Source of the DNA: a virus
Taxonomy: Duplodnaviria; Caudoviricetes
IMG/VR virus record: IMGVR_UViG_3300037454_000475
Location: 41,291 to 105,290 of that record
Reading direction: 5' to 3' (one strand)
Length of the DNA stretch: 64,000 nt
The number at the start of each line of letters is the position of its first letter. The first letter of the stretch is position 1. Of the stretch, positions 6,851 through 7,451 are shown piece by piece. The notes beneath the pieces were generated by a model. That model was not told the origin of the DNA, did no database searches, and was given only the letters and a program-made list of their open reading frames with translations. A program made the position numbers and the translations under genes.

Positions 6851-6949
6851 AATGGAGCCGCTTTCGAGTGATCCCGGACACTACCCCGGCGGGCGCGGCA
6901 TACCCATATGTGTTTGTGCGATTGTATCCTATAAAAGGTGGGTGAGAAC

Positions 6950-7250
6950 TACGCCCTCACCCGTGGCTGTGCTTCGGTGCCTAACTTTAGGCAGCGATAG
7001 CCATTTCAGTACGTGCGCCAGTTATTGCGCGGACACCATCTCTTTTGTTCCTTCGGCCGCTGTCAAAACCAAACACCCCCATATGAGAAGGTTTATACGA
7101 TACCTACAAACGTTTGGGGACACCGTATGGCATCGATCCACCACCGATTTTTACGAAATCGGAAACGTCTTTAATTGGCGAAAGAGTGGAGGTGACGGGA
7201 GTCGAACCCGTGTCCAAACGGATTATCTAACAAAATACAAACGATTGTGC
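6950..7250 (-). ncRNA. ssrA: Circularly permuted (two-piece) tmRNA; tag (A)GARTEMAIAA at 7019-6987
   Basis: Acceptor piece ending GGACACGGGTTCGACTCCCGTCACCTCCA (7187) lies upstream of 5' piece GGGGGTGTTTGGTTTTGACAGCGG (7080); 7-bp acceptor stem with G3:U; outer limits approximate. Confidence 0.9.
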
Positions 7251-7254
7251 CATG

Positions 7255-7328
7255 CGGTGTTGAAGGGGCTCGAACCCTCGACCTCCGCCGTGACAGGGCG
7301 GCATTCTAACCAGCTGAACTACAACACC
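7255..7328 (-). tRNA. tRNA-Asp(GTC)
   Basis: Canonical, CCGCC-CTGTCAC-GGCGG. Confidence 0.95.
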
Positions 7329-7451
7329 ATATAGAAATCCAACTCAAAAATCCGTAGACGTGGGGGTGAAAAAGGAAAGGAGGTGACCCACAAGCCGTTC
7401 GTTCGGCATCGGATTAAAACCTGTTGGATACTGCGGACGCAGTGGTTTTTG

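Follow-up and report, generated by a model that had tools for sequence, protein, structure and literature searches.

A miniature permuted tmRNA gene with Bacteroidales-like sequence in the tRNA array of an uncultured phage

tmRNA is the RNA that rescues stalled ribosomes. The two-piece tmRNAs of the alpha, beta and cyanobacterial lineages share their gene order and consist of two pieces joined by the acceptor stem and P2. They keep pseudoknot 1 and an outer-tail pairing. Permuted genes of this kind, in the order acceptor-spacer-coding, are also found in lytic-type phages, e.g., Melnitz (OM43 phage), the pelagimyophages and cyanophage S-CAM1. These often adjoin tRNA genes and presumably depend on the host SmpB; they are of the alpha or cyano type and come mostly from marine phages. 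Among isolate phages 53 two-piece tmRNAs, mostly aquatic, have been reported, and that of Melnitz is related to Alphaproteobacteria (Buchholz et al., 2022; PMC9004378). Of the tmRNA database, which has 97,179 sequences and 11,946 permuted ones, 79 entries are listed as phage tmRNAs in the paper of 2025, whose supplement includes, uncommented, 48 permuted genes in Bacteroidota assemblies (PMC11915505). A literature search found no paper on a Bacteroidota-type or pseudoknot-free permuted tmRNA lineage. Two-piece phage tmRNAs are already known (PMC9004378); what appears to be new here is the Bacteroidota-type, pseudoknot-free form.

The stretch of DNA analysed here (64,000 nt, hereafter the window) corresponds to bases 41291-105290 of a linear 105,290-bp IMG/VR virus record, which CheckV estimates to be 58% complete. 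ARAGORN called a permuted tmRNA on the minus strand with the tag GARTEMAIAA* and tRNA-domain brackets that include G3.U. The Rfam model RF04321 (tmRNA_permuted) matched over its full length (1-213) at 7234-6987 (-) with 63.1 bits against a cut-off of 47 (E 7.7e-10 for the whole window). A circularly permuted two-piece tmRNA in a phage is what the sequence-only reading had proposed, with ARAGORN and the Rfam permuted models as its suggested check. ARAGORN and RF04321 are both positive, and the permuted tmRNA gene is real. The acceptor end at 7187, the 106-nt intervening segment, the 5' piece beginning GGGGGTG and the P2 pairings that it had given all hold.

On the minus strand the gene runs from an acceptor piece (7253-7187, about 67-70 nt, CCA not encoded) through the 106-nt spacer (7186-7081) to a coding piece of about 150 nt (7080-6931). 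The acceptor piece contains the 3' strands of the P2 helices (P2c 7251-7243, P2b 7235-7229, P2a 7221-7217), the T-arm (7211-7195), and the acceptor 3' strand CACCUCC with a discriminator A (7194-7187). The coding piece opens with the acceptor 5' strand GGGGGUG (7080-7074), followed by a D-loop-like UUUGGUUUUGAC (7073-7062) and the 5' strands of P2a (7061-7057), P2b (7049-7043) and P2c (7040-7032). By the ARAGORN call and the covariance-model alignment, the two pieces make up a tRNA-like domain with a 7-bp acceptor stem (GGGGGUG/CACCUCC), the G3.U alanine identity pair, a T-arm and the discriminator A. The two P2 pairings already described, AGCGG/CCGUU and AACAAAA/UUUUGUU, are present, and we found a third P2 helix, GAUgGUGUC/GGCACaAUC. 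Minimum-energy folding of the two pieces or of the precursor recovered the acceptor stem and P2 but missed the T-arm, therefore the covariance-model alignment was relied on instead. An outer-tail pairing (UGGC with GCCA), a feature of alpha-type tmRNAs, was considered and dropped, as it is broken in one of the related assemblies (L177).

The tag reading frame (7019-6987 (-), ARAGORN) begins with a GGC resume codon and encodes GARTEMAIAA followed by UAA. The stop codon lies within a hairpin, as had been noticed from the letters; this is UGCCUA-AAGU-UAGGCA (6993-6978), the equivalent of helix 5. A terminator-like hairpin (GGGUGAG...CUCACCC, 6962-6940) follows and leads into a U-run; the whole element (6962-6931) is likely to close the coding piece at its 3' side or to stabilise it. 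The distance from the end of P2c (7032) to the GGC (7019) is 12 nt, too short for pseudoknot 1. In the alignment with host tmRNAs, neither the pseudoknot 1 region (~60 nt) nor the pseudoknot 2-4 region (~190 nt) has a counterpart in the phage RNA. The region that the sequence-only reading had called very reduced thus lacks all four of the usual pseudoknots, and the mature RNA would be about 215 nt. Pseudoknot 1 is present in nearly all known tmRNAs, although it is typical rather than strictly defining, and in E. coli tmRNA a hairpin can stand in for it. With pseudoknot 1 absent, the function of the phage RNA rests on inference.

Directly upstream is a tRNA-Asp(GUC) gene (7328-7254 (-); ARAGORN, and 67.4 bits on the Rfam tRNA model). 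Its 3' end comes 1-2 nt before pairing begins in the acceptor piece, so that 3' processing of the tRNA would create the 5' end of the acceptor piece. The junction is conserved in three related assemblies (L036, L038 and L177). The spacer contains two hairpins, CCGAUUU/AAAUCGG and GAUGCC/GGUGUC; the second reads GATGCC/GGCATC in L038 (GGUGUC to GGCAUC), with the pairs kept. A protein gene in the spacer was ruled out, the 106 nt holding chance ORFs only, and a 160-aa plus-strand ORF (6852-7334) runs antisense across the tmRNA and the tRNA-Asp. The almost invariant spacer may itself be functional, e.g., as a small RNA or a signal for processing. The bases with which it begins, UUUCGCCAAU, are found again in the trailers of two distant family members (L016, L020).

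Downstream of the tmRNA unit, at a distance of about 80 nt, is a tRNA-like element (6851-6765 (-)) with an acceptor stem of 9 bp, a T stem of 4 bp, a long variable arm, the anticodon UGA (Ser) and an encoded CCA. The element scores 33.7 bits on the tRNA-Sec model, under the cut-off of 47, and is nearly invariant in L036 and L038. ARAGORN called no tRNA-Ser anywhere in the phage record, and the element could be an unusual Ser-type tRNA. CCA is encoded in 0/40 of the phage tRNA genes and is likewise missing from the tmRNA gene.

These 40 tRNA genes and the one tmRNA call are all on the minus strand of the record and fall within ~16 kb (ARAGORN). Most large proteins of the record have no family match in PHROG or Pfam. 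A 1078-aa phage protein has relatives (21-26% identical) in 31 phage records, mainly jumbo phages of Prevotella, Tenacibaculum, Chryseobacterium and Flavobacterium: 15 Prevotella Lak phages, six uncultured huge phages, five Tenacibaculum phages, two Chryseobacterium phages, one Flavobacterium phage, and two records of Sphingomonas phage PAU. The permuted tmRNA is absent in five distant jumbo relatives (Chryseobacterium MA9V-1, Tenacibaculum pT24, Flavobacterium MaF61, Prevotella Lak-A1 and Sphingomonas PAU) and hence does not characterise the wider phage lineage. As queries against IMG/VR, the 1078-aa protein retrieved one 40.7-kb contig, which is without a tmRNA, and an OmpA-like neighbour protein had no match. 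The Bacteroides-type promoter motif (TTTG...TAnnTTTG) is not enriched (4 found vs 2.4 expected) and is thus no help for the host call. Neither SmpB nor a CCA-adding enzyme was found in the 105-kb record, 58% complete by CheckV, and this incomplete genome also yielded no tyrosine integrase (PF00589). The phage is probably a large, uncultured, gut-type phage with a host among gut Bacteroidales. A Bacteroidota host is likely for the tmRNA-carrying phage, in keeping with the initial description of a probable Bacteroidetes phage.

Close relatives of the locus are present in two Logan assemblies (L038 and L036) and a JGI metagenome contig (L177), giving four assemblies with this record. A pattern scan of JGI metagenomes gave five matches, four of them chance matches in unrelated DNA. 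The order tRNA-Asp, tmRNA, tRNA-Arg is identical in the four independent assemblies. An assembly artefact, the objection that the sequence-only reading had raised against itself, is therefore excluded by the shared gene and neighbours. The tmRNA and spacer are nearly invariant across the four, while the adjoining tRNA-Asp differs in L038. Among the relatives, an A-to-G substitution opposite U in P2b keeps the pair, and a C-to-U substitution opposite G in the stop-codon hairpin of L036 leaves a G.U pair. The tag changes at codon 4 only, Thr to Arg in frame, giving GARREMAIAA in L036 and L177. Since the four close relatives are ~97% identical, covariation within the clade is thin; the stronger signal is found among remoter members of the family, whose alignment was made by eye. 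In L038, a 97%-identical relative, tRNA-Asn is separated by a 146-aa Endonuclease_7 gene (L038:2257-2697) from a tRNA-Asp of variant sequence that immediately precedes the tmRNA; the window has only about 120 nt at the same spot. The arrangement resembles the insertion of a homing endonuclease accompanied by replacement of the local sequence.

Among the matches listed in a signature scan, the closest chromosomal counterparts of the phage RNA are one-piece tmRNAs. We scanned a 24-nt signature from the phage 5' half, GGGGNTGNNTGGTTTTGACAGCGG, over one genome per prokaryote species and obtained at least 120 genome matches. Those listed are all Bacteroidota (120/120), nearly all Bacteroidales. Among these 120 listed matches ARAGORN found a tmRNA gene in 104, and 103 of the genes are one-piece, nearly all with GENNYALAA-type tags; this agrees with the statement, in the sequence-only reading, that Bacteroidetes tmRNA is one-piece with GE.NYALAA-type tags. 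The phage RNA was then put back in collinear order and aligned with Bacteroidales tmRNA genes. Four segments are homologous, i.e., the 5' tRNA-like half, the resume context, the tag end and the 3' tRNA-like half, and the phage RNA is identical to the best host tmRNAs among the matches listed at 79/87 positions. These best-match hosts are MAGs labelled Paludibacteraceae, Prevotellaceae or Bacteroidales, many of them from the gut of yak, buffalo, deer or goat. Other sampled phage tmRNAs stand at 59-74/87 positions in the same comparison, the cyano-type S-CAM1 at 63/87.

With the one-piece tmRNAs of Paludibacteraceae and Prevotellaceae (RF00023), the phage RNA shares the 5' tRNA-like half (23/25), the 3' half (33/35) and a tag ending in Ala-(Leu/Ile)-Ala-Ala-stop; the tag end GCUnUnGCUGCnUAA matches host tmRNAs. 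The resume context ATAACT-GGC is identical in Paludibacteraceae and one Prevotellaceae genome over the six bases upstream of GGC, as is the upstream context written AAUAACU. Bacteroidales host genes end in ...CUCCAC, and CCA is unencoded there as in the phage. In contrast, the host one-piece tmRNA gene of about 394 nt is collinear, with pseudoknot 1 and a pseudoknot 2-4 region, whereas the phage tmRNA is permuted, about 215 nt when mature, and lacks roughly 250 nt of pseudoknot regions. The standard one-piece model RF00023 fails on it (34.3 bits vs 47), matching with the 3' part of the model only and cut at the 5' side. The middle of the tag is ARTEM in the phage and ENNY in the host, whose tags are GENNYALAA or GETNYALAA. 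The phage tag keeps the length class, the Gly resume codon and the terminal hydrophobic-Ala-Ala, so that nothing points to a changed degron, part of the sequence-only reading, although one is possible. In the closest hosts among the matches listed, acceptor pair 5 is C-G, against G-C in the phage. Both strands have changed, which shows that the two separated halves evolve as partners.

The models of the three classical permuted lineages all fail on the phage gene: alpha (RF01849) at 28.2 bits vs a cut-off of 50, beta (RF01850) at 32.0 vs 84, and cyano (RF01851) at 28.5 vs 70. Their partial matches cover the tRNA core only. The permuted gene of cyanophage S-CAM1, run as a positive control, scored 128.2 bits vs 70 on the cyano model. 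The phage sequence UUUUGAC-AGCGG departs from the permuted consensus UUCGAC-GGG and agrees with Bacteroidales. Given this Bacteroidales one-piece signature, the gene is best read as having arisen separately from the alpha, beta and cyano lineages. Unlike the tmRNAs of the Melnitz and cyanophage type, the one described here has no pseudoknots, is Bacteroidales-like, belongs to a gut-type phage and fails the lineage models. Its standing apart from the three types had been foreseen. The further proposal of an independent permutation in a phage holds in so far as the models and the Bacteroidales signature separate the gene from the classical lineages, but the permuted form is not particular to this phage.

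The 19-nt 5' end of the phage tmRNA occurs in 14 IMG/VR contigs. The tmRNA gene is permuted in six of these, standard in three and interrupted by a group I intron in three; no tmRNA form was called in the other two. Two contigs with a permuted gene, L027 and L034, came from a scan with a 29-mer from the T-arm and not from the 19-nt scan. The permuted genes of L013, L014, L016, L019, L020, L022 and L027 pass the generic permuted model only. The same is true of the RefSeq crAss-like phage cr7_1 (NC_055895), in which the gene is annotated as 'transfer-messenger RNA, SsrA' and is permuted by both ARAGORN and RF04321. A stand-alone permuted tmRNA, with the tag GNKIESKIAA and again passing the generic model only, was found in 1/151 sampled Bacteroidales genomes (L165). 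The 5' motif is UGGUUUUGACAG in cr7_1 and the IMG/VR contigs and GGAUUUGACAG in L027; L165 differs. The L165 gene (G029:C48:20201-20567) is on a Bacteroidales genome contig, preceded by a promoter element of the TAnnTTTG type and followed by a strong terminator. There is no permuted tmRNA in five host-like genomes, and BLASTN of this tmRNA and of L016 against isolate phages matched only the universal T-arm region.

The permuted IMG/VR genes resemble the present one in layout. Their acceptor piece starts with a strand of the distal helix, as here; there are three intermolecular P2 helices, the GGC resume codon is about 11-12 nt past the last helix, and a hairpin and U-run (T-run) come right after the tag. 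The distal P2 helix reads GAACAUU/AAUGUUC, GUACUUAC/GUAAGUAC or GAACUUG/CAGGUUC in members of the family, and GAUgGUGUC/GGCACaAUC here. Independent predictions for nine sequences (L036 and eight distinct phage tmRNAs) each gave three P2 helices, and the paired sequences are all different. The P2 duplex energy averages -14.8 kcal/mol with a sequence's own partners vs -9.8 with swapped partners. Family members differ from this phage in their tags (GKTI..., DNVNN..., GNKIESKIAA) and in their spacers, which range from 47 to 308 nt, several with another conserved motif. Over the compared segments, the phage RNA is nearer to ruminant-gut Bacteroidales tmRNA (79/87, among the matches listed) than to the set formed by cr7_1, the IMG/VR contigs and L165 (59-74/87). 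The compact architecture is found in other phage contigs and probably also in cr7_1 and L165, and is therefore not peculiar to this phage. The best explanation is that the phage tmRNA belongs to a wider compact permuted group in phages, separate from the alpha, beta and cyano lineages.

Several members of this group have features of their own. The spacers of L014, L016, L022 and L027/L034 contain the conserved motif GCTAACCCGTCGCGTTAGTACGG, which can form two interlocked short helices (CTAAC/GTTAG and CCGT/ACGG) and has no Rfam family match. A one-piece gene (L012:4717-5050 (-)) and a permuted gene (L013:307-773 (+)) have homologous resume and tag sequences, the tags starting with GKNIF..., which suggests recent switching between gene forms within phages. 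L013 also has a tRNA-Glu gene (L013:459-530) within the spacer of its permuted tmRNA; a tRNA gene in this position has been described in a single case, a tRNA-Ala (PMC11915505). Phage tmRNA genes with the same 5' end but with a group I intron inside (98.5 bits) occur in L010, L017 and L018. L010 and L018 have a tRNA array that includes a suppressor tRNA with the anticodon CUA.

We consider it probable, at roughly 80%, that the gene encodes a functional permuted tmRNA and that this is a miniature derivative of a Bacteroidales-type one-piece tmRNA, placed in an array of 40 tRNA genes. The ancestral one-piece RNA would have shrunk and lost all four pseudoknots. The array transcript would be cut by host tRNA-processing enzymes: 3' processing of tRNA-Asp would free the 5' end of the acceptor piece, and RNase P would cut before G1 of the coding piece, the 106-nt spacer being discarded. 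A host enzyme would add CCA, since the tmRNA gene and the 40 phage tRNA genes encode none. Two RNAs of about 70 and 150 nt would then be held together by the 7-bp acceptor stem and three P2 helices. The host AlaRS would charge the G3.U acceptor stem, and the host SmpB and EF-Tu would deliver the charged RNA to stalled ribosomes. Translation would resume at GGC and add (A)GARTEMAIAA before the stop codon. The likely benefit would be extra ribosome rescue in infection, as ribosomes become stranded through mRNA breakdown or through host defences that cut RNA.

The RNA might instead bind SmpB or the ribosome without tagging and so dampen host trans-translation. Its very small size and the missing pseudoknot 1 would fit such a decoy, and a tmRNA-like RNA of mycobacteriophage DS6A that has no CDS is cited as inhibiting endogenous tmRNA in E. 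coli (PMC11915505). In all four assemblies, however, the phage gene retains an intact frame, a host-identical resume context, a stop-codon hairpin and an Ala-Ala terminus, the sole tag change being an in-frame Thr to Arg, and we regard the decoy as improbable. A similarly small chance attaches to descent from the alpha, beta or cyano lineage (cf. Melnitz) with later convergence on Bacteroidales to fit the host SmpB, AlaRS and RNase P. Alpha- and cyano-type two-piece tmRNAs do exist in phages (PMC9004378; S-CAM1). Because the tRNA-like domain is conserved everywhere, part of the host likeness is uninformative, and S-CAM1 still has 63/87 positions. Against such descent, the lineage models fail outside the tRNA core, UUUUGAC-AGCGG fits Bacteroidales and not the permuted consensus, and the 79/87 with chromosomal Bacteroidales (among the matches listed) exceeds the 59-74 of other sampled phage tmRNAs. 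The Gly resume codon and the six bases upstream are also identical to those of the hosts.

Integrating elements often carry the 3' end of ssrA. The locus could in principle be a non-working leftover of this kind, with a host ssrA 3' fragment (an attachment site) upstream of a decayed 5' fragment, and the 33/35 identity of the acceptor piece with host tmRNA 3' ends would suit that origin. Decayed fragments are hard to reconcile with an acceptor pair 5 that has changed to match on both sides, with three P2 helices whose strands are complementary, or with a unit and spacer that are nearly invariant in four assemblies while tRNA-Asp varies. Nor was a tyrosine integrase found in the incomplete 105-kb record, and the gene is inside a tRNA array. 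We consider the leftover very improbable, and a functional, permuted derivative of a Bacteroidales-type tmRNA the preferred reading.

In a broader form, to which we would give an even chance, Bacteroidota phages carry a further lineage that was independently permuted from the one-piece tmRNA of the phylum, free of pseudoknots, about 215 nt long and matured via the phage tRNA operon, and this would be the smallest natural RNA for full, tagging trans-translation. If this is confirmed, tmRNA permutation would have at least one additional origin, in phages, besides those in the three bacterial lineages and mitochondria, and a natural minimal tmRNA without any pseudoknot would be at hand for studies of structure and mechanism. 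The tRNA-like domain and resume context follow the tmRNA of the host group and may therefore serve as a marker linking uncultured phages to hosts. The understanding of what tmRNA is or does would be unchanged, and the phage would be one more case of large phages with translation-rescue parts of their own.
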